A DNA stretch of 64,000 nucleotides from positions 1 through 64,000 of IMG/VR virus record IMGVR_UViG_3300005713_000004. The stretch is one strand, 5' to 3'. The notes beneath the pieces are model-generated. The model had not been told where the DNA came from. It saw only the letters and a program-made list of their open reading frames with translations, and searched no databases. Shown in pieces: positions 4,041 to 25,288 of the stretch. Each line of letters begins with the position of its first letter. Position 1 is the stretch's first letter. The position numbers and the translations under genes are program-made. The DNA is from a virus. Lineage: Duplodnaviria; Caudoviricetes.

Positions 4041-5054
4041 TCACGCTTGCCACCGGACCGGGGCGAAGCGGGCCGCCTGCGGGCGCCGGTCGGACAGGTC
4101 GATCGTGTCGCCGCGCCGGAGCGCCTCGACGAGGGTCGTGTCCACGTCCAGCGGCGCGGAGATCCGGACCACCGGGTCCACGTCCACCACGACCGCGTCC
4201 GGGCGCTCGAACGACGCTTCGAGGCGCGGGCCGCGCTGCGCGAGCGCGTCGACTACCCGCGCCACCGGCGGCGCCTCGCACGTCCACTCGTGGACCTCGT
4301 CGATCACCACGAATCGGGGCGAAGCGCCACGAATGTAGGGGTTGACACCGGCCAGGATTCCGGTAGGGCGCCACCGGGACAGGTCGTCGGCGAAGCGGGC
4401 GAGCGCCTCCCCCGCAGCAGCGAACGCGGCGACGATCCCGTCCACCGACGAGCCCAGCGACGCGAACACGGCCGCCACCTCCCCTTCGGAGGGGATCCAC
4501 GAGGGCCGGGCCGGAGGGAACGCCCACTCGTCCGGGACGAGCGGCATCGTGCCCTCCGCATAGACCGGGGAGTGGGCCTCGACGTCCTCGCGGTCGTACC
4601 CGTGCGCGATCGCGTCCGTGATCGCGTTCTCGTCGACCAGCATCGGGGCAGGCGCGCCCCACTCGAACGGCCACGCGAGGTCGTCGTTCCGCTCGTCCCC
4701 GGCCGCTGCGAGGGCGCCAGCAGCCGCGTACGCGCTCCGGGAAGCGTCGGAGGACAGGTGGGGCGCTCCGGGGCCCTGCGGCGTCGCAGCGGCGGCGAGC
4801 CGGGCCGCAGCATCGGTCACGGCCGGATCCGGGGCCCCGGAGATGCCCTCCGCGATCCCGTCGGCCCACAGCCCGGCGATAAGCCGGGCCTCATGGGCGG
4901 AGATCGCCCCGCCCTCGTTCTGCCGCAGTAGCGCAGCCTCGACGGCGAGCAGGTCCACCATGGTCATGCCCTCGCTCCGCGCCGCGTGGAACCGACGAGG
5001 ACGAGCCGGGTCGTCCGGGTTGGACGCCTCGAAGCGGCGCGGTCCGGTGCACAT
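4041..5054 (-). CDS. hypothetical protein
   Basis: Acidic protein-like sequence; start coupled to stop of the DUF1353 gene. Confidence 0.6.
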   Translation of the reverse strand: MCTGPRRFEASNPDDPARPRRFHAARSEGMTMVDLLAVEAALLRQNEGGAISAHEARLIAGLWADGIAEGISGAPDPAVTDAAARLAAAATPQGPGAPHLSSDASRSAYAAAGALAAAGDERNDDLAWPFEWGAPAPMLVDENAITDAIAHGYDREDVEAHSPVYAEGTMPLVPDEWAFPPARPSWIPSEGEVAAVFASLGSSVDGIVAAFAAAGEALARFADDLSRWRPTGILAGVNPYIRGASPRFVVIDEVHEWTCEAPPVARVVDALAQRGPRLEASFERPDAVVVDVDPVVRISAPLDVDTTLVEALRRGDTIDLSDRRPQAARFAPVRWQA

Positions 5055-7271: not shown

Positions 7272-7613
7272 TCATCCGACGAGTTCGTACCCGCCCTCGT
7301 CGTCGAGCAGTACCAGCCCCACCGCGAGCCGGACCGGGACCGTGGACACGTCCTCGACCTGCCAGCCCACCGCCCAGCCGTTCGCCTCCGCTTCGGTCCG
7401 GTCGCCCTCAATCCGGCCGTGACACCCCGACGTGTTCCCCATCCCGCACACCGCGAGCAGCCACGCAGGCGAGTGGATCGCCCGTCGGGTCCCGCCCATC
7501 CCCCGGCCGCGCCGGTGGTGGACGTTCGAGGCGGGAGCGGCTCCACAGACCTCGCACATGCCGCCCGCGCGGTCGAGGACGATCCGCCAGTCCCGCGCGC
7601 TCACCGAAGCCAC
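7272..7613 (-). CDS. HNH endonuclease
   Basis: CEVC...HHRRGRGMGG...C...CHG.IE. Confidence 0.85.
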   Translation of the reverse strand: MASVSARDWRIVLDRAGGMCEVCGAAPASNVHHRRGRGMGGTRRAIHSPAWLLAVCGMGNTSGCHGRIEGDRTEAEANGWAVGWQVEDVSTVPVRLAVGLVLLDDEGGYELVG

Positions 7614-14103: not shown

Positions 14104-14796
14104 TCACGGGCGAGCGAGTGGAGCAGCGCCCGGAGGTCCGACTTCGTCGCCTGCGGGTTGTCCAGCCGGAGCAGGTGGAGCCGCTCCGCTCGCGTCACCC
14201 GACCCGCCTTCCGGGTCGACGCCTGCGCCCGGCGCTCCGTCGCCGCCGCCACCTGCTCCGGGGTCACCGGTCGGCCCCGGTCCATCGGAGGGAAGGGGGA
14301 CGGGGCCGCTGCTGCTGCTCGGACCCGGGCCGGGGGTCGCTGTCGGAGCAGGGTCGCGAGTCGCTGGGCTCGTCGGTGGCTGCGCGGTCCGCGCGGGTGG
14401 GTCGGTGGGGTCTGCTCCCGCTCCGGGTCGAGCGCCACCGCTTCCCGGTGTCGCTGGTCCTGCTGCTGTCGTGGGGTTGGCACTGGTGGTGTCCTCCGTG
14501 ATGTAGGGCAGGAGGACCGGGACCTCTCGGACCACGGTCTCCGGGGGTGGTGGCGGGATCGTGACGACCAGCGTGGTTGCGGGCACGTCGGGCGGGAACT
14601 GCGGGACGGTGATCGGGGCGCCTTCGCCCCGGAGCAGGGCGCGGACGTCGTCGAAGGCGGAGAGCGGGCCCGCGAGGTGGGAGAGCCATCCTCCCCCGGC
14701 GAGGGCTACCGCTGCGGCGGTGAGGTAGCAGGGCCACCGGTACGCGTCGAGGTCGAGGCGCCTCCGGGGGACCTGCTCGATCTGCTGCGTGTCCAC
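14104..14796 (-). CDS. membrane-anchored Pro/Thr/Gly-rich protein
   Basis: TM segment then low-complexity tail; divergent from the transfer operon; start inside a CGTGTCCACG motif. Confidence 0.55.
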   Translation of the reverse strand: MDTQQIEQVPRRRLDLDAYRWPCYLTAAAVALAGGGWLSHLAGPLSAFDDVRALLRGEGAPITVPQFPPDVPATTLVVTIPPPPPETVVREVPVLLPYITEDTTSANPTTAAGPATPGSGGARPGAGADPTDPPARTAQPPTSPATRDPAPTATPGPGPSSSSGPVPLPSDGPGPTGDPGAGGGGDGAPGAGVDPEGGSGDASGAAPPAPAGQPAGDEVGPPGAAPLARP

Positions 14797-15418: not shown

Positions 15419-17031
15419 TGGCCACGTCCTCGACGAGTCGCCGCGCGGACGCGACCCCGGCGGCTCCGCCCACCCCCCCGGCTTCGCGTCCGGCGCAGGG
15501 TCGGCCGCAGCGGACCGACGCCCCCGGCGCCGACGAGGGCGTGGACACGAAGCGGCCCGGCCTGCCGGTGTGGGTCCTCGCGGTGCCCGCCGTGCTGGCC
15601 GTGGCGATGTGGATCGGGTGGGCGTTCGGGTGGGGGTGGGGTGTCGCGTTCGCGGTGGCCGCGCTGCTCGCCCTGCTCGTGTGGCGGCTGCTGGTCGCCC
15701 GGAAGGCCCGCGACGCGAAGAGCACGAAGGACGGGAAGGGCAGCCGGTCGGCCGCCCGGAGGGAGCGCAGGTGGAACAGGCGGACGACGGACGGGTCTAC
15801 CCGTTCGGGACAGCCGGGGTCGGCTCGTGGTCTTCGGGGGCTGGCACAGCGGCTGCGTGCGAGGGCTGCGGGGAACCCGTTCCGTGGCGGTACCTCCGGT
15901 GGGGGCCGGTCGAGCGGGACGGGCGGGTCGTCGTCGAGCGGCTCGAACCGGCGTGGCACCCGGCGTGCGGGCGGCGGGCCGCGTGGCAAGGGCTCCGGGC
16001 TGATGTCGCGACGGCGCGGGATGCGGTCGTCCTCGTCGGGGAAGGGCTCGCCCGGCTCGTCCCGCCGATCGTCGGGGCCGTCGGGCCCGTCCTCGAAGCG
16101 GGGGTCCCGATCGTCGTCGAGCGGTTCGGGGTGGTGGTCGCGACTGCGCGGGAAGTCGGGCGCGTCCACCTCGTCCAGGCGCGGCGGGGGCTCCGGTGGG
16201 TCCGGGTCGACCGGGTCGGGCGGGCGGCCGGGCGGTGGGTCGGGGGGCTCGTCGTCCGGGTGGACGCGGCGCGGCAGGAGTGGGCGCGCGGGGTGGGCTA
16301 CACCCGGGCGTGGCGGCGGGCACTCGACGGGGACGACGAGGTGGGTCCCGTGGTGGCGGCGCCGGGGTGGCGCGGGTGGGACGTCCTCCCCGGGGGGGAG
16401 CGGTTCCGGCCGCTCGCGCCGGGGGAGTTCGAGCGGTGGGGGTTCCGGTGGGACGGGCGGCACGCCTCCGTCATCCGGCGGGACCCGGCCGCAGGGGAAG
16501 CGGGCCCGGCTTCGGGGGCGGGGGTCCTCGACGCCTTCCGGCGGTTCGACGGGATCGGGCCCAGCGGGCACGGGGACGTGGACACGCCGTCGCAGCAGCG
16601 GCGGCGCCGACAGGGCCGCAGGCCCGGACAGGAGTAGCGACATGCCGAAGAGCAGCAGCGCGCCGCGTGGGCGGCGGGGGACCGGGGCCGGGCCGTGGGG
16701 CCCGATGGTGGACGCGGCGGCGAACGTCGCCCGCGCGTTCTCCGACCCGGTGGCCATGGAGGGCGTGAACGCGCTCGACACGGCCGGGGACGCGTGGGAG
16801 CAGATGGGCCGGTCCGTCAAGGTTGTGGGCGCCACGATCGCCGACGAGATCGATTGGGACCCGCGCGTGGCCCGGTTCTTCGAGGTGATGGGGGACGTCC
16901 TCATCCGGGCTGCGAAGCCCGCCCGCGACGGTGCCGCCGCTGTCCGGCGCGCGGAGCACGAGCGGATCAACAACGTGGAGGAGGGCGGCTCGCGCCGTCG
17001 CCGGTGGGATATCAGCGCCCACGACAACTAG
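15418..17031 (+). CDS. TraA-like accessory transfer protein (TM, long Gly/Ser/Arg linker, helical C-terminal domain)
   Basis: C-terminus AEHERINNVEEG...RWDISAHDN resembles proteins encoded just upstream of traB on actinomycete plasmids; position. Confidence 0.55.
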   Translation: MATSSTSRRADATPAAPPTPPASRPAQGRPQRTDAPGADEGVDTKRPGLPVWVLAVPAVLAVAMWIGWAFGWGWGVAFAVAALLALLVWRLLVARKARDAKSTKDGKGSRSAARRERRWNRRTTDGSTRSGQPGSARGLRGLAQRLRARAAGNPFRGGTSGGGRSSGTGGSSSSGSNRRGTRRAGGGPRGKGSGLMSRRRGMRSSSSGKGSPGSSRRSSGPSGPSSKRGSRSSSSGSGWWSRLRGKSGASTSSRRGGGSGGSGSTGSGGRPGGGSGGSSSGWTRRGRSGRAGWATPGRGGGHSTGTTRWVPWWRRRGGAGGTSSPGGSGSGRSRRGSSSGGGSGGTGGTPPSSGGTRPQGKRARLRGRGSSTPSGGSTGSGPAGTGTWTRRRSSGGADRAAGPDRSSDMPKSSSAPRGRRGTGAGPWGPMVDAAANVARAFSDPVAMEGVNALDTAGDAWEQMGRSVKVVGATIADEIDWDPRVARFFEVMGDVLIRAAKPARDGAAAVRRAEHERINNVEEGGSRRRRWDISAHDN

Positions 17032-17076: not shown

Positions 17077-19377
17077 GTGTCGGAGACGCCTACCCGGATC
17101 ACGATCCCGCCCGCGCTGGGCTACCCGGTGTTGGGCGTCCTCGTCGTGTTCATCGCCGGGTGGCTCTACACGTTCGCCGGGGCGGAGCACTTCGCGCCGT
17201 GGTGGCTCCTGCTCGCCGTGCCGGTGCTGGGCTTCCTCGGCGCCGCGCTCGCCCGGACCTTGTGGGCGGACGTCGCGTACGGGGTCGCCCAGCAGCGGGC
17301 GGCGGTGTGGTTCGCGTGGGTCGCGGCGGCCGGGGCGGGGGCGTGGCTCACGTGGGCCGGGCTCGTCACCCCGGGCGCCGCGCTCCCGCTGCTCGTGTTG
17401 GGCGCCCTGCCGTTGTGGGGGTGGTTCGCGATCCTGTGCCTGCGGGCGCCGAAGGCCCACGCCCGGCAGGTCGAGCGCCGGGAGGAAGGGCGGCAGATCG
17501 TCCAAGAACGGTCGTGGCGGACGATCCTCGACCGGTCGGGGTCGGAGGACGTGGTGATCACGGAGGTCCGAGAGCACCGGGCCGGGATGGTCCTCACGGT
17601 CGAGCCGGACCCGGACGCGGCGAAGTTCCCGACGTACGACGAGTTCGCGGGCCGGGCGCCGTCGATGGCGACGCAGGCGGCGATGCACTACCGGCGGACC
17701 TCGAACACGCGGCTTCCGAAGAACTGCGTCCGGACGGAGCCGGGCCGCGACGACGCAGAGTTCCTCGTCCACATCACGATGCGGGACGTGTTCGGGGCCT
17801 CGACGTGGTACCAGCCGGACGAGGTCCCGGGGGACATCGCGGACCCGGTGGATCTGGGCGAGTACGAGGACGCGGCACGGCTGCTGCTCCCGCTGGACGC
17901 GAACACGAAGATCGTGGGGGCGACGGGGGCGGGGAAGTCCAACCTCGTGAACAACATCATCGGGCGGATCACCGGCACCATGAACGCGCTCGTGTGGGTC
18001 GCGGCCACGGACAAGTTGGTCCCGCTCGTGTGGCCGTGGCTGCGGGCGTGGCTGTCGGGGAAGACGAGCCGCCCGATCCTCGACTACGTCGCTGGGCAGG
18101 ACATCGACTCCGTGTTGCGGCTGCTGCGGGCGACGTACCGGCTCGTCTGCGAGCGCAACGCCCGACTTGAGGACGAGTCGAAGATCCGGCCGACGGCGGA
18201 CCTGCCGGTGGTGTTCGTGATCCTCGAAGAGGTGTCCCACCTCACCGACTTCCCGGACACCATCCGGACCCACGACGGGATCGACTGCACGGCTTCGGAC
18301 CTGCTCAAGATGATTGCGCAGGCGGACCGGTCGGCGGGGGTCCGGCTGTTCATGCTGTCGCAGTACGGGATCAACGCGGCTCTCGGCGACCGGGCGTCGG
18401 AGTTGATCCGCAACATCACGTGCAGGATCTGCCTTCGGACCATGGAATCCCACGACGGGTTCCGGACCCTGCCGGGTCTGCCGTCGACCGTGGACACGAC
18501 CTCGCTCGCAAACTTCACGATGTACGTGCAGCCGAACACCGAAGAGGCGCGGGCGTTCCCGGCGAAGGCGCCGGAACTGGACGGCGCCGAGCAGGTCGAG
18601 CCGGTCGCGATCGGGAACACCCGGTGGCGCCCGGCCGGGGTCGAGCCGGAGGTGGCCGCGCTGCTCGGCCTCGACTACGAGCGGCGGTGGGCGTCCTCGC
18701 GCCTGCCGATCCTGGCGGCCCCGGTGGCGAGGCGCGGGTGGGAGTGGCCCGGCGAGCAGGTGGCGCCGGTCCCGGTCCCGGCGGCGCCGGTCGACGAGGT
18801 GGACGAGGGGTCGCCCGTGGCGGGCGGCCCGAACGATGGGGGGGACAGCGTGGATACGACCATGAGTCCGGAGGACGAGGACGCGTTCCGGCGGCTGCTC
18901 GGCGGCGACGAGCCGGAGCAGCGGCAGGGACCGGCTGCGGCTGCGTCGGTCGCGGTCGACCGGGACGAGGACACGAGCGGGCGCGCGGCGCCGTTCGAGG
19001 TCCCCGACTTCGGCGCGGAGATGGCGGAGATGGAGGCGCTCGCGGCGGACATCGCGGCGAACCCGTTCGTCCCGGGTCGCGATCAGGACGCGACCCGGGA
19101 GGCTGGTCCGGGTCGCCCGGTCCCCGACCCGCTCGACCGGGTCGTCCGGTGGCTGGACTCCGTCCCGGTCGACGAGGACGCGTGGGTCCGGACGGAGGAA
19201 CTCGTGTTCCGGATCGGGTGGGACCGGGACGCGGCGGCTCTCGGTCGGGCGCTCGCGAAGTTCCCGGGCGTCCGGTCGGACAACCTGCCCCGGCAGTTCG
19301 ACCCGCAGCAGCGGAAGGGCTACCCGGTCCGGATGCTTCGGGAGGCGGCGACCCGGTACCGGTTCGGGTCGCCGTAG
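17077..19377 (+). CDS. traB: TraB-type FtsK/SpoIIIE DNA translocase (actinomycete conjugation ATPase)
   Basis: N-terminal TM helices, Walker A GATGAGKS, Walker B VFVILEE, DRSAGVRLFMLSQ arginine-finger region, acidic linker, C-terminal winged-helix-like domain. Confidence 0.88.
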   Translation: MSETPTRITIPPALGYPVLGVLVVFIAGWLYTFAGAEHFAPWWLLLAVPVLGFLGAALARTLWADVAYGVAQQRAAVWFAWVAAAGAGAWLTWAGLVTPGAALPLLVLGALPLWGWFAILCLRAPKAHARQVERREEGRQIVQERSWRTILDRSGSEDVVITEVREHRAGMVLTVEPDPDAAKFPTYDEFAGRAPSMATQAAMHYRRTSNTRLPKNCVRTEPGRDDAEFLVHITMRDVFGASTWYQPDEVPGDIADPVDLGEYEDAARLLLPLDANTKIVGATGAGKSNLVNNIIGRITGTMNALVWVAATDKLVPLVWPWLRAWLSGKTSRPILDYVAGQDIDSVLRLLRATYRLVCERNARLEDESKIRPTADLPVVFVILEEVSHLTDFPDTIRTHDGIDCTASDLLKMIAQADRSAGVRLFMLSQYGINAALGDRASELIRNITCRICLRTMESHDGFRTLPGLPSTVDTTSLANFTMYVQPNTEEARAFPAKAPELDGAEQVEPVAIGNTRWRPAGVEPEVAALLGLDYERRWASSRLPILAAPVARRGWEWPGEQVAPVPVPAAPVDEVDEGSPVAGGPNDGGDSVDTTMSPEDEDAFRRLLGGDEPEQRQGPAAAASVAVDRDEDTSGRAAPFEVPDFGAEMAEMEALAADIAANPFVPGRDQDATREAGPGRPVPDPLDRVVRWLDSVPVDEDAWVRTEELVFRIGWDRDAAALGRALAKFPGVRSDNLPRQFDPQQRKGYPVRMLREAATRYRFGSP

Positions 19378-19567
19378 GCTGTCCGGGTCGTCCCGTCCTG
19401 CTACGCGACCCGCTACGTGGGTCGGGGCGACCCGGACAGCCACCGGCGCGCGGCGAGCCGGAGCGGGTCGCCGGACCGGGGTGGACGACCCGGGAGAACC
19501 TGCTCCACGCGAGAGGCCCGGCCCCGACGGGGGCCGGGCCTCTCTGCTGTCCCGGGTTAGCGACCCG
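19071..19567. repeat. clt-like cluster of CGACCCG repeats (about 15 copies)
   Basis: Counted in the traB 3' end and downstream intergenic DNA; resembles the GACCCGGA TraB recognition repeat of pSVH1. Confidence 0.65.
19511..19544. terminator. bidirectional hairpin between convergent units
   Basis: Perfect 15-bp stem, 4-nt loop. Confidence 0.75.
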
Positions 19568-19898
19568 CGAGCCAATCGTTGAACCGGTCGCGAGCCTCTT
19601 CCTCGGACCCGGCGTAGTAGCCGCCGCCGGGGCCTTCCTCGAAGTAGCGTTCCGCCGCGCGCTCCGCCGCGATCTCCGCCCGGTGCTCGGCCTCCCATTC
19701 CTGCTGAATCGCCCAGCAGTGTCGGACGTGGGCAACGGTGGCGTGGCGGACGATCGCGTCCGGCCCGGTGACGCCGTAGCCCCGTTCGGTGTCGGAGCAG
19801 GATCCGCAGCGGACGCCGTCCGCTGTGCGCTCCGGGAGGCGGTAGTACTCGATCTCGTCGATCGGGCGGGCGGTGGCGGCCGTGGTGAGGGTCGACAT
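19557..19898 (-). CDS. hypothetical protein (CxxC, HxxxC)
   Basis: GGAGG RBS after boxA-like leader. Confidence 0.7.
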   Translation of the reverse strand: MSTLTTAATARPIDEIEYYRLPERTADGVRCGSCSDTERGYGVTGPDAIVRHATVAHVRHCWAIQQEWEAEHRAEIAAERAAERYFEEGPGGGYYAGSEEEARDRFNDWLAGR

Positions 19899-19916
19899 CG
19901 TGTCCTCCGGTGAGGG

Positions 19917-19990
19917 TCTCTGTTGAGTTTTCAACCGGACCCGGTGGGCCCGACACGAGAGACATTACACGGCGACCCACGACCACGCAA
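19917..19990 (-). promoter_or_regulatory. promoter TTGCGT-17-TAATGT plus hairpin and boxA-like TTGAAAACTCAACAGAGA
   Basis: Repeat-family match. Confidence 0.75.
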
Positions 19991-20034
19991 GCCCCCTGCG
20001 CGACCCGTTGCAGATCGAGACCCCACCGTGACCC

Positions 20035-20157
20035 GCAACGGTTGCGCAACCGTTGCGCCCAGCCGTGGACACGGCCAAAGCCCCCTCCCCACCTGCGAAA
20101 ACACCGCGAGGGGGGAGAGGGCTCCGCGTGCAACGGTTACAGCCGCAACGGTTACAG
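20035..20157. repeat. GCAACGGTT palindrome and direct repeats
   Basis: 22-bp perfect palindrome at 20035-20056; GCAACGGTTACAG twice (20130, 20145). Confidence 0.7.
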
Positions 20158-20721
20158 GACCAGCAATGCGACCCCCACCCACGACATCACCGACACCGGG
20201 AAGTACAGCCACGCGAGGCGGCTCGCTTCGACCTCGGACCCCGTCGAGAACACCCGCCCGATCCGCAGCCGCCCATCCCGAACCGCCGTGTAGTACCCCC
20301 GGTCGCGGCCGGGCCACGGGATCCCCGACATCGTCCGAGCGTCCCCCCACAGGTGGACGCAGCAGCCCACGAACACGCAGGCCCACCACCACACCGCCAT
20401 GACCGGGCCGCCCAGCGGCGCCGGGACCAGCAGCGCCAGCAGCGCCACCGGGAGCCCGAACACCGCCGCTGCGGACCTCGTGTGCGTCCACCCCCTGTGC
20501 TCCACGAACAGGCACAGCAGCCACGACACGAGCCGCGTCGCCGGTCCGAGCGAGTGGGTCACCGTCGAGCCCGGGTGGTCGAGGTCCGGCAGGAGAGCGG
20601 AGTACCCGACGAGGATCCCGCCGAGCACGGCCGCCGGGAGCGGGACGCCCAGCCCGTGACCCGCCCCGGCGACCCACGACCCGGCGGCGAGCCCGGTCGT
20701 GAGGTGGCTCCGGGCCATCAT
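20152..20721 (-). CDS. YdjM-family membrane metal-dependent hydrolase
   Basis: RSH...ALLPDLDH...HRGWTH...HLWGDA motifs. Confidence 0.85.
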   Translation of the reverse strand: MMARSHLTTGLAAGSWVAGAGHGLGVPLPAAVLGGILVGYSALLPDLDHPGSTVTHSLGPATRLVSWLLCLFVEHRGWTHTRSAAAVFGLPVALLALLVPAPLGGPVMAVWWWACVFVGCCVHLWGDARTMSGIPWPGRDRGYYTAVRDGRLRIGRVFSTGSEVEASRLAWLYFPVSVMSWVGVALLVL

Positions 20722-21644
20722 GACGCGGACTCCGCGTCCTGCTCGACCGGAGCCGGGACGGGTCGCACAGCGGGTCGCGCGTCCCGGGCCTGCGCGAGCA
20801 GCCGGGTTGCCTTCGACCCGCCGCAACCCGCGTGCTCCCGGACCGCCTTCGCGGTCGGCGGGCGGCCGACCCGGTCCCACTCCGACCCGATCCACGCGAC
20901 CGTCGCCGGGTCGTCCGGGTCGCCGACCCGGGTTGACCCGGCGGGTCGTGCCGGGTTGCGGGTCGCCGGGACCCGGGTCGGGGCCTTCCGGTCGGGACGG
21001 GTCGCCGGGTCGGCGACGGCCGGGACGGGTCGCGAGACGACCTGCTCGACCCGGGTCGTCGGGCGGGCGGCGAGCGCGGCGCCTACGGCGTCCCGGATCG
21101 CGTCCCGCTGCTCGACCCGGATCGCGTCCCGGATGCGCTCCGGGTCGGCGGAGACCGGGATGCCGACGAGGTGGGTCACGGGCCACGTCGTGTCCACGTC
21201 CGCGCGCATCCGGGCGACGTAGTCGCGGACGCGGCCCAGCATGACGGCGACGAGTTCGAGGGTGACCGCGAACGAGATCGGGGCCCACACGGCGGCGGCG
21301 AGGCGGCCGACGCCCTCGCCGACGGACGGGGCGCCGAACGCGTCGGCGCTCGCGAGGTTCGCGGCGATGGTGCCGATGAACCCGACCCCGAACGCGAGCC
21401 ACGGGACGAAGCCGATCGGCTGCTGCGCCCAGCGGCGGGAGTACATCACCACGAGCGCGGCGATCAACATCCCGTCGGTGGTGAGCGGGAGCCACGCGGC
21501 GCGGGACTCCGCCTCGCCGTAGGTCCGGAACACCTCGTACGCGTGGTGGTAGGAAGCGACGGCGGCGGGCCCGCCGACGGACGCGAGGATCGCGGCGATA
21601 CCGAGCAGCATCGCGGCGACCGCGAGAGCGGTTCGGGTGGTCAC
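20718..21644 (-). CDS. DUF2637-family spread-type membrane protein with C-terminal HTH
   Basis: ASYHH...GE...AWLPLTTDG, four TM helices, PPTAKAVREHAGCGGSKATRLL winged helix. Confidence 0.8.
   Translation of the reverse strand: MTTRTALAVAAMLLGIAAILASVGGPAAVASYHHAYEVFRTYGEAESRAAWLPLTTDGMLIAALVVMYSRRWAQQPIGFVPWLAFGVGFIGTIAANLASADAFGAPSVGEGVGRLAAAVWAPISFAVTLELVAVMLGRVRDYVARMRADVDTTWPVTHLVGIPVSADPERIRDAIRVEQRDAIRDAVGAALAARPTTRVEQVVSRPVPAVADPATRPDRKAPTRVPATRNPARPAGSTRVGDPDDPATVAWIGSEWDRVGRPPTAKAVREHAGCGGSKATRLLAQARDARPAVRPVPAPVEQDAESAS
20759..21147. repeat. second CGACCCG cluster (about 20 copies) inside the DUF2637 gene
   Basis: Encodes ATRP/DP-rich linker; mostly direct repeats on the coding strand. 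Confidence 0.7.
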
Positions 21645-22084
21645 GGGAGGATCTCCAGTCGGACGGAGCGGGTGATGTCGTGGCCGTTGTCGTCGAGCAG
21701 CGCGACCGGCTCCGCGCGAACCTCGATCAGGTCCGACGGCGGGCGGCGCGTGGTGGTGGCGGTGGCGCGCATGAGGGTCATGTGGTGGGCGACGGCGACC
21801 GCGTCGGCCGGGTCTTCGGCGATGTGGACCCCGACGACCTGCTCGTCCGCGTAGTGGCCGACGAGCAAGATGTACGCCTGCGTGCGCGGCTGCTCCGGGT
21901 CGGTGGCGCCCAGCCGCTCCGCTTCGCGGGCGACGGCTTCGCGGTAGGCGTGTCCGGTGTCGCGGACGATCAGGCAGGCGGCGCGGTGACGGAGCCCGGC
22001 GCCGGTGAGCCCGGCGCCGATCGGGCAGGTCATCTCACAGTCGTCGCGGGCCTCGAAGTAGTTCGCGGGGGTGAGGGTGTCCAT
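21641..22084 (-). CDS. hypothetical protein
   Basis: AGGAG RBS; coupled to the DUF2637 gene. Confidence 0.65.
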   Translation of the reverse strand: MDTLTPANYFEARDDCEMTCPIGAGLTGAGLRHRAACLIVRDTGHAYREAVAREAERLGATDPEQPRTQAYILLVGHYADEQVVGVHIAEDPADAVAVAHHMTLMRATATTTRRPPSDLIEVRAEPVALLDDNGHDITRSVRLEILP

Positions 22085-23508: not shown

Positions 23509-24396
23509 TCACGACCAGACGAGCCCCACGACGTTGACGTAGCCGCCTCCGGTCCCGAGGACGAGCGGGGCGGTCATCGTGATGGTGCAGCCGGTCGCGG
23601 TGAGCGTCCCCGACTTGAGGACCATCGTGATCGAGCCCAGCGTCCCGCCTCCGGGCTCGCGCAGGATCGCGATCGAGGTCGGGACGGCGCCTGCGCTGGT
23701 CCACGTGACCGCGACGTCGGTCGGGGTATTCAGCGCGAGCGCAGGCACCGCGACGCGGCCGTGGACGAGCCGGGGCCGGAGCGCTTCGAGCGCGGTCACG
23801 CGGGTGGTGAGCGCGGCGACCGCAGCGGCTGCGGCGTCGGCGGTGGTCTTCGCTCCGGCCGCTGTCGCGCCCGCTGCGGTCGCGGTCGACTGGGCGGCGG
23901 CTGCGTCCGTCTTCGCGGTGTTCGCCGTGGACTGGGCGGCGGAGGCTGCGGTACCGGCTGCGGTGGCGGTGGTCTGTGCTGCGGCGGCTGCGGTCGAGGC
24001 TGCGGCGGCTGCGGCGGTCGCCTCCGTGGCGCTCGTCTTCGCGCTGTCCCCGGTGGCCTTCGCGGTGTCGGCGGCCGTCTTCGCCGCAGCAGCGGCGGTC
24101 GAAGCGAGCGCGGCGGCTGCGCTCGCGGACTGGGCGGCGGTCGAGGCGGCTCCGGCTGCGGTGGTCGCGTCGGCGGCTGCGGTCCCGGCGGCGGTGGCCA
24201 TGGTCCGGGCGTTGCTGGCCATGGTCCGGGCGCTGTCCCCGGTGGCCTGCGCGCTGTCGGCGGATGCCTGTGCCGCAGCAGCAGCGGCGGCGGCTTGAGC
24301 AGCGGCGTAGGACCGACGCTCAAGCTCGATCAGACGTTCGGTGACCGGGCCGGTGATCTGGCGCACGCTCGACCTCCCGTCGGCGCGGGCGGACAC
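23509..24396 (-). CDS. Ala/Thr-rich coiled-coil protein with C-terminal beta domain (tail-fibre-like)
   Basis: About 170 aa of A/T/S heptad-like repeats ending LTTRVTALEAL, then a beta-rich domain; start uncertain. Confidence 0.6.
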   Translation of the reverse strand: MSARADGRSSVRQITGPVTERLIELERRSYAAAQAAAAAAAAQASADSAQATGDSARTMASNARTMATAAGTAAADATTAAGAASTAAQSASAAAALASTAAAAAKTAADTAKATGDSAKTSATEATAAAAAASTAAAAAQTTATAAGTAASAAQSTANTAKTDAAAAQSTATAAGATAAGAKTTADAAAAAVAALTTRVTALEALRPRLVHGRVAVPALALNTPTDVAVTWTSAGAVPTSIAILREPGGGTLGSITMVLKSGTLTATGCTITMTAPLVLGTGGGYVNVVGLVWS

Positions 24397-24595: not shown

Positions 24596-25288
24596 ATGAG
24601 CGACAACGACACCACCACCGGCCCCACCTACCGACTCACCCGCGAGGACTGGTTGCACCGGGCGACCGACATCCTCCGCCCGATGTTCGAGCAGGTGGGC
24701 GCCACCCTCCCCGACGTGATCCACCTGTCCGTCGGCTTCGGCGGCTCCGGCGCCGGGAAGTACGAGCGGTTCGTAGAGGGCGTCACGTGGTTCCGCGCGG
24801 CCGACGCCTGCGGCCACAACCACGTGTTCATCTCCCCGACGCTGGGCGACACCGCCCACGTCCTCGAAGTCCTCGTTCACGAACTGTGCCACGTTGCCAC
24901 GGACAACGTGGGTGGTCACGGGGGCGAGTTCGCGGAGTTCATGACCCGGCTAGGCATGACCGGGCGGATGACCACCGCGCAGGCGGACGTGCCGTTCATG
25001 GCGGAGCTGATGGTCATCGCGGCGGAGTTGGGCGACTACCCCCACGGGGCGCTCGACATGGCGCCCGTCAAGGTCGAGGCGCCGGTGGGCCCGGACGGGA
25101 TCGAGATCCCGGTCGGGCGGCCGACCAGCGGCCCGAAGGCGCAGACAAACCGGTGGATCTCGTTCTCCTGCCCCGTCCACGACGCGCCGGTCCGGATGTC
25201 GCGGACGAAGGCGGCTCTCGGCGCCCCGTACTGCGGCCACCGGGACGAGCAGGGCGTCCCGTGCCTCACGGAGATGGTGGCGCGGTAG
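24596..25288 (+). CDS. SprT-like zinc metalloprotease with C-terminal Zn ribbon
   Basis: VLVHELCH...HGGEF; CP.H...PYC. Confidence 0.8.
   Translation: MSDNDTTTGPTYRLTREDWLHRATDILRPMFEQVGATLPDVIHLSVGFGGSGAGKYERFVEGVTWFRAADACGHNHVFISPTLGDTAHVLEVLVHELCHVATDNVGGHGGEFAEFMTRLGMTGRMTTAQADVPFMAELMVIAAELGDYPHGALDMAPVKVEAPVGPDGIEIPVGRPTSGPKAQTNRWISFSCPVHDAPVRMSRTKAALGAPYCGHRDEQGVPCLTEMVAR

Follow-up and report, generated by a model that had tools for sequence, protein, structure and literature searches.

Two dense arrays of the heptamer CGACCCG (CGGGTCG on the other strand) are present in the first 64,000 nucleotides, here called the window, of the tailed-phage record IMGVR_UViG_3300005713_000004, a single virus record of 76,733 bp that CheckV rates as 100% complete. 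Array A (19073..19567, sites on both strands) straddles the 3' end of a gene for a TraB/FtsK-like translocase, and array B (20677..21153, likewise on both strands) lies in the 3' half of a gene for a DUF2637 membrane protein on the opposite strand. Both arrays are selected at the level of the DNA, the signal residing in the DNA and not in the peptide, and it is well supported that they represent protein-binding DNA whose word changes at both sites together and has diverged from one lineage to another. With confidence and doubt about evenly matched, we suggest that the arrays would be clt-like (cis-acting locus of transfer) docking sites of a phage-borne module for translocation of double-stranded DNA of the TraB type. 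The equivalence to clt is proposed because of the analogy with published work on TraB and clt; the identity of the binding protein, and the translocation of DNA, we infer.

Array A contains 14 copies of the word, seven on each strand and in all three codon phases, where 1.19 are expected (standard deviation 1.07, maximum 7 in 2000 dinucleotide-preserving shuffles of the interval). The last 305 bp of the intact translocase open reading frame (ORF; 766 amino acids (aa)) hold eight of the sites, five are intergenic and one falls in the 3' end of a convergent 125-aa ORF, the six downstream sites being contained within 190 bp past the translocase ORF. A first-pass annotation of this DNA had reported about 15 copies here and listed ten positions. 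The dense cluster is real and all ten positions are exact matches, although the count itself is 14, and the background of less than one copy per kb that was assumed then is slightly low, the measured value being approximately 1.5-1.9 per kb over both strands. Outside the two arrays, intervals of 497 bp across the 76.7-kb genome average 0.74 copies with a maximum of 3, and 33 of the 144 copies in the record are found in arrays A and B, that is, in two blocks of 0.5 kb. The same annotation had stated that equally dense clusters at many unrelated loci would refute its reading; a sliding count across the phage genome revealed only one other cluster, that at 20677-21153, inside the same gene module.

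The extended consensus of array A is approximately gCGACCCGg, with C preceding all 14 GACCCG cores and G or C following most of them. The copy at 19299 may not itself be selected, since it lies on conserved FDPQQ codons and is present also in relatives that use other words. Just past the traB stop codon is an imperfect inverted repeat (19370..19448) with 29-nt arms that are 86% complementary and carry copies of the motif in both arms, and between the convergent genes sequence and folding identify a perfect 15-bp GC hairpin (19511..19544). The stretch that includes both structures (19365-19560) has a fold z-score of -7.3. The hairpin is likely to be a bidirectional terminator lacking a T tract, and it was missed by a consensus terminator scan because there is no T run. 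An inverted pair of CGACCCG words further upstream, at 14200/14212, was inspected and yielded nothing interpretable.

Array B is denser than array A (19 CGACCCG copies versus 14), against an expectation of 1.40. Its 21 GACCCG cores are divided between the strands as 8+/13- and occupy all three codon phases, spanning residues ~166-295 of the DUF2637 protein, which correspond to its linker and helix-turn-helix (HTH) domain. The two arrays are 1.1 kb apart (~1.6 kb from start to start). The contribution of the encoded peptides was estimated by synonymous resampling, in which codons were redrawn 3000 times with the codon usage of the phage while the proteins were held fixed. The coding part of array A in the traB-like gene holds 8 copies against 1.97 in the resampled sequences (P<1/3000), and the DUF2637 gene holds 18 against 4.5, with none of the 3000 resamples reaching the observed number. 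The remaining 1989 bp of the traB-like ORF contain no copy at all.

Further evidence came from relatives of the module, for which eleven distinct loci were fetched and subjected to an unbiased scan for locally clustered k-mers. Full-length homologues of the ATPase, at 31-62% identity, were found only in metagenome assemblies, several of the contigs being 69-76 kb in length. The loci share a gene order of a ~300-aa gene, a ~140-aa gene and the traB-like gene, facing a convergent operon composed of a variable small gene, a YdjM-like gene and the DUF2637 gene. Most of the relatives that carry DUF2637 keep both arrays in position, some of them weakly, with array B kept more widely than array A. 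The word itself is not constant. The window has CGACCCG, with 14 copies at the traB 3' end and 18 in the 3' half of the DUF2637 gene. CGGACCG is used by L002 (16 and 21 copies at the same two places), L006 (8 and 15), L012 (17 at the traB end, the contig ending before the DUF2637 half) and, weakly, L005 (5 and 6). In L011 the word is CGGTACG, accompanied by CGGACCG (8 and 11), and L013 and L010 have a word of the (GT)GCACCCG type at both sites. The lineage variants recovered are CGACCCG, CGGACCG, CGTACCG and GCACCCG.

In syntenic relatives a single 7-mer ranks as the most enriched both at the end of traB and in the 3' half of the DUF2637 gene of the same genome, and this 7-mer differs between genomes. 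A cross-prediction matrix gave the same result, the DUF2637 word of each genome forecasting enrichment at its own traB end only. That the word is matched within a genome and differs between genomes indicates selected protein-binding DNA that has been written into coding sequence. At one homologous site in traB the window has CGACCCG, encoding Ala-Thr-Arg, four relatives have CGGACCG (Ala-Asp-Arg) and another has CGGTCCG (Ala-Val-Arg), a switch in which the amino acid follows the DNA word. Arrays of the CGGACCG type, such as that at L012:7953-8483, contain CGGACCGGACCGGACCG-like runs in which overlapping sites are spaced at 5 bp within linker codons, and as this period is out of frame it marks a repeat at the DNA level. 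The form CGGWCCG is a near-palindrome. No helical phasing was detected, the distances between sites in 12 arrays being without periodicity apart from a 5-bp overlap class in CGGACCGGACCG runs.

Arrays of related words were seen in two more distant phages, both of them isolates. In Saccharomonospora phage PIS 136 the FtsK protein is 32% identical to the 766-aa ATPase, and an array of 23 CGGAACC words lies beside its gene. The record named 'Microcystis phage Mwe-JY05' (L018, PP395638.1) has an ATPase homologue of 32% identity and two CGGACCG arrays of 13 and 11 copies (4424-4814 and 7283-7584). The record, which has a GC content of 74%, looks like an actinophage of the present kind rather than a cyanophage, and its host assignment may deserve to be re-checked. 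The same scan was applied to plasmids as a positive control, and recovered nine CGTTAC words beginning 4 bp past the FtsK/TraB gene of pSQ10 and five TGTTGC words at +8 from the traB homologue of a Streptomyces mobaraensis plasmid. Among records of the phage and plasmid collections no similarity was detected beyond ~32% identity in the motor domain, and DNA-level searches of phages and plasmids found no close record. Scanning viral, genome and metagenome contigs by pattern provided no usable further relatives, the two matches being 2.5-kb fragments without the 3' end.

The ORF at whose end array A lies (17077..19377, plus strand, with a GC content at third codon positions of 0.95) is, as judged from its sequence, a distant FtsK/SpoIIIE-like ATPase. 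It is predicted to have three to four N-terminal hydrophobic helices (hydrophobic segments within residues 7-125), followed by a Walker A motif (GATGAGKS) and a Walker B-like motif (VILEE) as expected of a P-loop motor, an acidic and proline-rich linker and a C-terminal winged-helix domain. Residues G281, G284, G286, K287, E384 and E385 do not vary among 21 homologues. This invariance, which takes in the Walker A residues, agrees with the earlier suggestion that the module is functional rather than relic, in so far as the ORF looks functional. It matches the FtsK/SpoIIIE-like PHROG family (E 2e-15), is ~25% identical to FtsK-like proteins of actinomycete plasmids, and has as its look-alikes in a protein atlas FtsK_SpoIIIE and FtsK_gamma clusters of Actinomycetota. 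A sequence search of the PDB gave only weak P-loop or FtsK matches (E 0.02-0.5). The last 95 aa are modelled by AlphaFold2 (AF2) with high confidence (predicted local distance difference test, pLDDT, 92.9) and match winged-helix DNA-binding proteins (Rex at Z 6.6, the MarR family and TubR), the scores of Z 5-6.6 being modest. A Pfam scan of this domain did not detect FtsK_gamma. The remote family matches and modest fold scores indicate a protein that has the layout of TraB yet is not a member of the curated family, so that the TraB label given in the first-pass annotation holds for the layout but not for membership, the ORF falling below the curated cut-offs for both TraB and FtsK families.

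The record as a whole represents a complete tailed phage rather than a plasmid or an actinomycete integrative and conjugative element (AICE), and its host is presumably a high-GC actinomycete. Among its genes are those for a large terminase, portal, major head protein, tape measure and amidase endolysin. Neither a tyrosine integrase nor a resolvase-type recombinase was found in the 76.7-kb record, and there is no match to ParB (PF02195) anywhere in it.

The word given in the first-pass annotation for TraB of plasmid pSVH1, presumably GACCCGGA, contains the core GACCCGG. Its likeness to the word of the window may be coincidence, as sister phages use other words. TraB of Streptomyces plasmids assembles at clt by binding 8-bp repeats (TraB recognition sequences, TRS) through its C-terminal winged helix (PMC4170104, PMC4447253, PMC12857230). 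The clt loci of pWTY27, pJV1 and pIJ101 mix direct and inverted repeats and that of pWTY27 overlaps the tra 3' end (PMC3583192). The phage arrays resemble clt/TRS in being clusters of 7-9-bp words, in direct and inverted orientation, that differ between elements and are placed beside or across the 3' end of a tra gene of the FtsK type, and the phage ATPase shares with plasmid TraB the membrane helices, the motor and the C-terminal winged helix (PMC3583192, PMC4447253, PMC4170104). The systems differ in that clt is a single locus of few direct repeats whereas there are here two arrays of 14-19 irregular sites in mixed orientation, mostly within coding sequence; in that the phage ATPase is ~25% identical to its plasmid counterparts and below the curated TraB model; and in that the element here is a complete tailed phage with no integrase, resolvase or ParB. 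The proposal of a clt locus made in the first-pass annotation is partly borne out, in that the array is real, is selected at the DNA level and straddles a tra-like 3' end, but has to be amended in that the array is one of a pair and the replicon is a phage.

In FtsK and SpoIIIE the C-terminal winged-helix (gamma) domain of the pump reads 8-bp words, namely the FtsK orienting polar sequences (KOPS) and the SpoIIIE recognition sequences (SRS). These resemble the phage arrays in being short words read, as the phage words may be, by the winged-helix domain of an FtsK-family pump, but they are dispersed over the chromosome and polarised by strand, whereas the phage words stand in two blocks of mixed orientation (array A 7+/7-, array B 8+/13-). 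The kinship of TraB with FtsK/SpoIIIE has been described previously (PMC12857230). A tailed-phage genome carrying actinomycete conjugative-transfer genes also has precedent in pZL12/phage ZL12 and the related pSLE1 (PMC4487206, PMC3583192, PMC4170104), and the combination is shared with the present phage. Both pZL12 and pSLE1 possess ParA/ParB and are maintained as plasmids (PMC4487206), whereas no ParB or integrase was found here. Another partial parallel is SpdA2 of pIJ101, which binds DNA at a palindrome, sps, located inside its own gene (PMC4170104). In both cases a gene of a spread module contains a protein-binding word within its codons, and the word shapes the peptide, although sps is a 12-bp palindrome present in one to three copies and conserved across plasmids, while in the arrays a word of 7-8 bp that varies between lineages is repeated 14-19 times. 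The sps palindrome CGTCACGTGACG had no match at up to one mismatch, and of the three matches at two mismatches (15.9 expected) none was in the module.

On the docking-site proposal, the membrane-anchored FtsK-like ATPase would assemble on phage DNA through its C-terminal winged-helix domains, which would bind the clustered gCGACCCGg sites. In concert with two membrane proteins, the SpdB2-like DUF2637 protein and the YdjM-like one, it could then pump the phage genome through hyphal cross-walls or into adjacent hyphae. The sites would have been written into fast-evolving codons, those for the linker and DNA-binding domain in each of the two convergent genes, and also into the inverted repeat that follows traB in the intergenic stretch.

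Several observations weigh against this proposal. The ATPase scores 33.1 bits against a cut-off of 800 with the NCBIfam model for plasmid TraB (NF041214) and 14.4 bits against 24 with Pfam FtsK_SpoIIIE (PF01580), which 16 of the 21 homologues match only below threshold. FtsK-gamma was not among the fold matches listed for the C-terminal model. Accounts of clt describe direct repeats, whereas the sites here are irregularly spaced and of mixed orientation. The word classes are not reflected in pairwise identities of the TraB winged-helix domain: the winged helices of L013 and L010, which have a word in common, are 48% identical, and the window and L013 share the putative TraB recognition helix and an ACCCG core but differ in the flanking bases. 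A search for the reader protein by covariation, using identity matrices of the TraB motor, the TraB winged helix, the DUF2637 membrane domain and the DUF2637 HTH domain, found none that separates the word classes. Among the relatives, L003 has no clear word and is weak at both sites, L008 (CGGACCG) has almost no traB array (~3 copies, with 15 in the DUF2637 half), and L004 and L007, which are at ~40% identity and have no DUF2637 gene, have no such arrays although the winged helix is kept. In PIS 136 the array lies outside the ATPase gene. Finally, as no integrase, resolvase or ParB was found, this phage may not lead the plasmid-like existence for which conjugation is understood.

Some of these points lead to a different binder, the C-terminal HTH domain of the DUF2637 protein, which may tether phage DNA to a septal membrane complex by sites inside its own gene. 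We regard this as doubtful, though it accounts for a number of features. The protein (20718..21644, minus strand, 308 aa; Pfam DUF2637 E 4e-07) is modelled by AF2 as four long N-terminal helices (residues 3-149), a region of low confidence (194-241) and helices at 246-289 with pLDDT 85-90; the last of these are predicted to form a three-helix HTH-like domain after a disordered linker, and the confidence of the model there counts in favour of this reading. This overall layout roughly resembles that described for SpdB2 (PMC4447253). Array B lies in this gene, is the denser of the two and is the more widely kept, as in L008. The array of PIS 136 lies under an ORF with a sub-threshold match to DUF2637, although hhalign did not link the array-bearing ORFs of either PIS 136 or Mwe-JY05 to that family. 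The first residues of the third helix roughly track the word, being ADRA in L006 and L011, Q(Q/D)RA in L013 and L010 and GSKA in the window, and SpdA2/sps of pIJ101 offers a precedent for a site in the gene of its binder (PMC4170104). On the other side, the HTH domain of the window is closest to that of L002 (48%) and yet the words differ, and L002, L006 and L008 share CGGACCG at HTH identities of only 28-40%. SpdB2 of pSVH1 has been reported to bind double-stranded DNA non-specifically (PMC4447253), and the place of array A at the end of traB is left unexplained. The protein itself looks like a mosaic. When the window (20718-21644) was compared with L013:5785-6672 and L002:9733-10749, the membrane domain was 89% identical to that of L013, while the C-terminal HTH was 24% identical to L013 and 48% to L002, which suggests a recombinational swap of the 3' part carrying array B.

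Between the two arrays there is a third (20005..20150), built on another word, with seven copies of GTTGC(A)/GCAAC(GG), a G/C hairpin and the DnaA-box-like sequence GTGGACACG (~20065-20073). This region could be an operator or an origin. The GTTGCA word occurs at the same place in six relatives (L002, L005, L006, L010, L011 and L013) and is therefore conserved across lineages, unlike the CGACCCG-type word. In L004 the corresponding position has 11 copies of GACCGCTCC instead. Origins of the lambda type typically have short-repeat arrays within the gene of the binder, and phage parS cassettes typically have repeats in paired blocks. The layout of arrays A and B, flanking a conserved repeat region with a DnaA-box-like sequence and a hairpin, recalls both, and the arrays might then be replication or segregation elements (iterons or centromere-like sites) bound by an initiator or partition protein, and not serve DNA transfer. 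We consider this improbable, given that no ParB-family protein was found in the complete record, that no replication protein or initiator was recognised among the neighbouring genes, and that there is no AT-rich stretch for unwinding, the minimum GC per 100 bp being 0.63-0.66 across 17.5-23 kb. The arrays moreover travel with the translocase module in the distant phages.

The repressor-stoperator systems of actinophages use lineage-specific words, and the words of the present arrays are lineage-specific too. As both arrays end convergent transcription units, near a strong hairpin, they may be envisaged as stoperator-like roadblocks at which a repressor-like protein stops read-through at the 3' ends of the operons. 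Stoperators are dispersed and oriented with transcription, however, whereas 33 of 144 copies are here gathered in two blocks of mixed orientation; copies near promoters do not stand out and no repressor gene was identified, and we think a roadblock very unlikely. That the arrays have no function and merely follow from a GC-rich composition, from codon usage or from a repetitive linker in the peptide deserves almost no credence, for although they overlap low-complexity linkers rich in Pro, Arg and Asp, and the amino acids alone lift the expectation to 2-4.5, the counts exceed those of all 2000 dinucleotide shuffles and all 3000 synonymous resamples, copies occupy every codon phase and either strand and extend into non-coding DNA, and the relatives keep the arrays while the word changes in both genes together. 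An artefact of peptide repeats or composition is effectively excluded on these grounds of codon phase, strand, shuffling and resampling.

The genes around the arrays may be described briefly. The YdjM-like membrane hydrolase gene (20152..20721, minus strand; Pfam YdjM E 1.6e-19) is syntenic in the relatives, and its start overlaps the DUF2637 stop in the sequence ATGA, an arrangement of translational coupling. The operon on the minus strand begins with a 147-aa ORF (21641..22084) without family match, which leads into the DUF2637 and YdjM-like genes. The 125-aa ORF that converges on traB (19557..19934, minus strand) has no assigned function, and its slot is variable among relatives, being occupied by DUF6409, HNH or other small genes. 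Upstream of traB are two conserved genes on the plus strand (15570..17031; 355 aa and ~129 aa) that match no family but have syntenic partners of ~300 aa and ~140 aa in every relative, the 129-aa protein being 42-55% identical in L004 and L007. Elsewhere in the record a cluster of CCGCAGC/GCTGCGG downstream of the module (~23820-24220) has 12 copies in 400 bp, of 29 in the 14.4-kb stretch scanned. An SprT-like protein is encoded at 24596-25288, and a RecT-like/PDDEXK exonuclease pair at ~45.4-48.3 kb.

FtsK-like genes are routinely annotated in Streptomyces phages and are discussed in these accounts only as possible tools for manipulating host development (PMC13587820, PMC10117723), and a role of phage SpdB2 homologues in the spread of phage DNA has been raised only as speculation (PMC4447253). 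What is specific here is the presence of paired, dual-coded arrays, of four natural variants of the word that switch in both arrays together, and of a genome with no recognisable integration or partition functions. The arrays show clearly how protein-binding DNA can be superimposed on codons, the word dictating amino-acid changes in a possible reader domain. As lineage-specific cis-acting arrays they also offer a testable handle on the spread of phage DNA, with defined probes, domains and natural specificity variants.

A more far-reaching proposal, which we advance tentatively and think rather unlikely, is that in these virulent-looking tailed actinophages a TraB-like pump, with two dual-coded arrays flanking origin-like repeats, moves replicating genomes through cross-walls without virions, and that the word has diversified so that each pump moves its own DNA only. 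If this were true it would amount to a form of self-recognition akin to the incompatibility of plasmids. Should phage DNA indeed be moved by the pump, its spread through the mycelium without virions would alter the view of plaque formation, containment and host range in filamentous actinomycetes.

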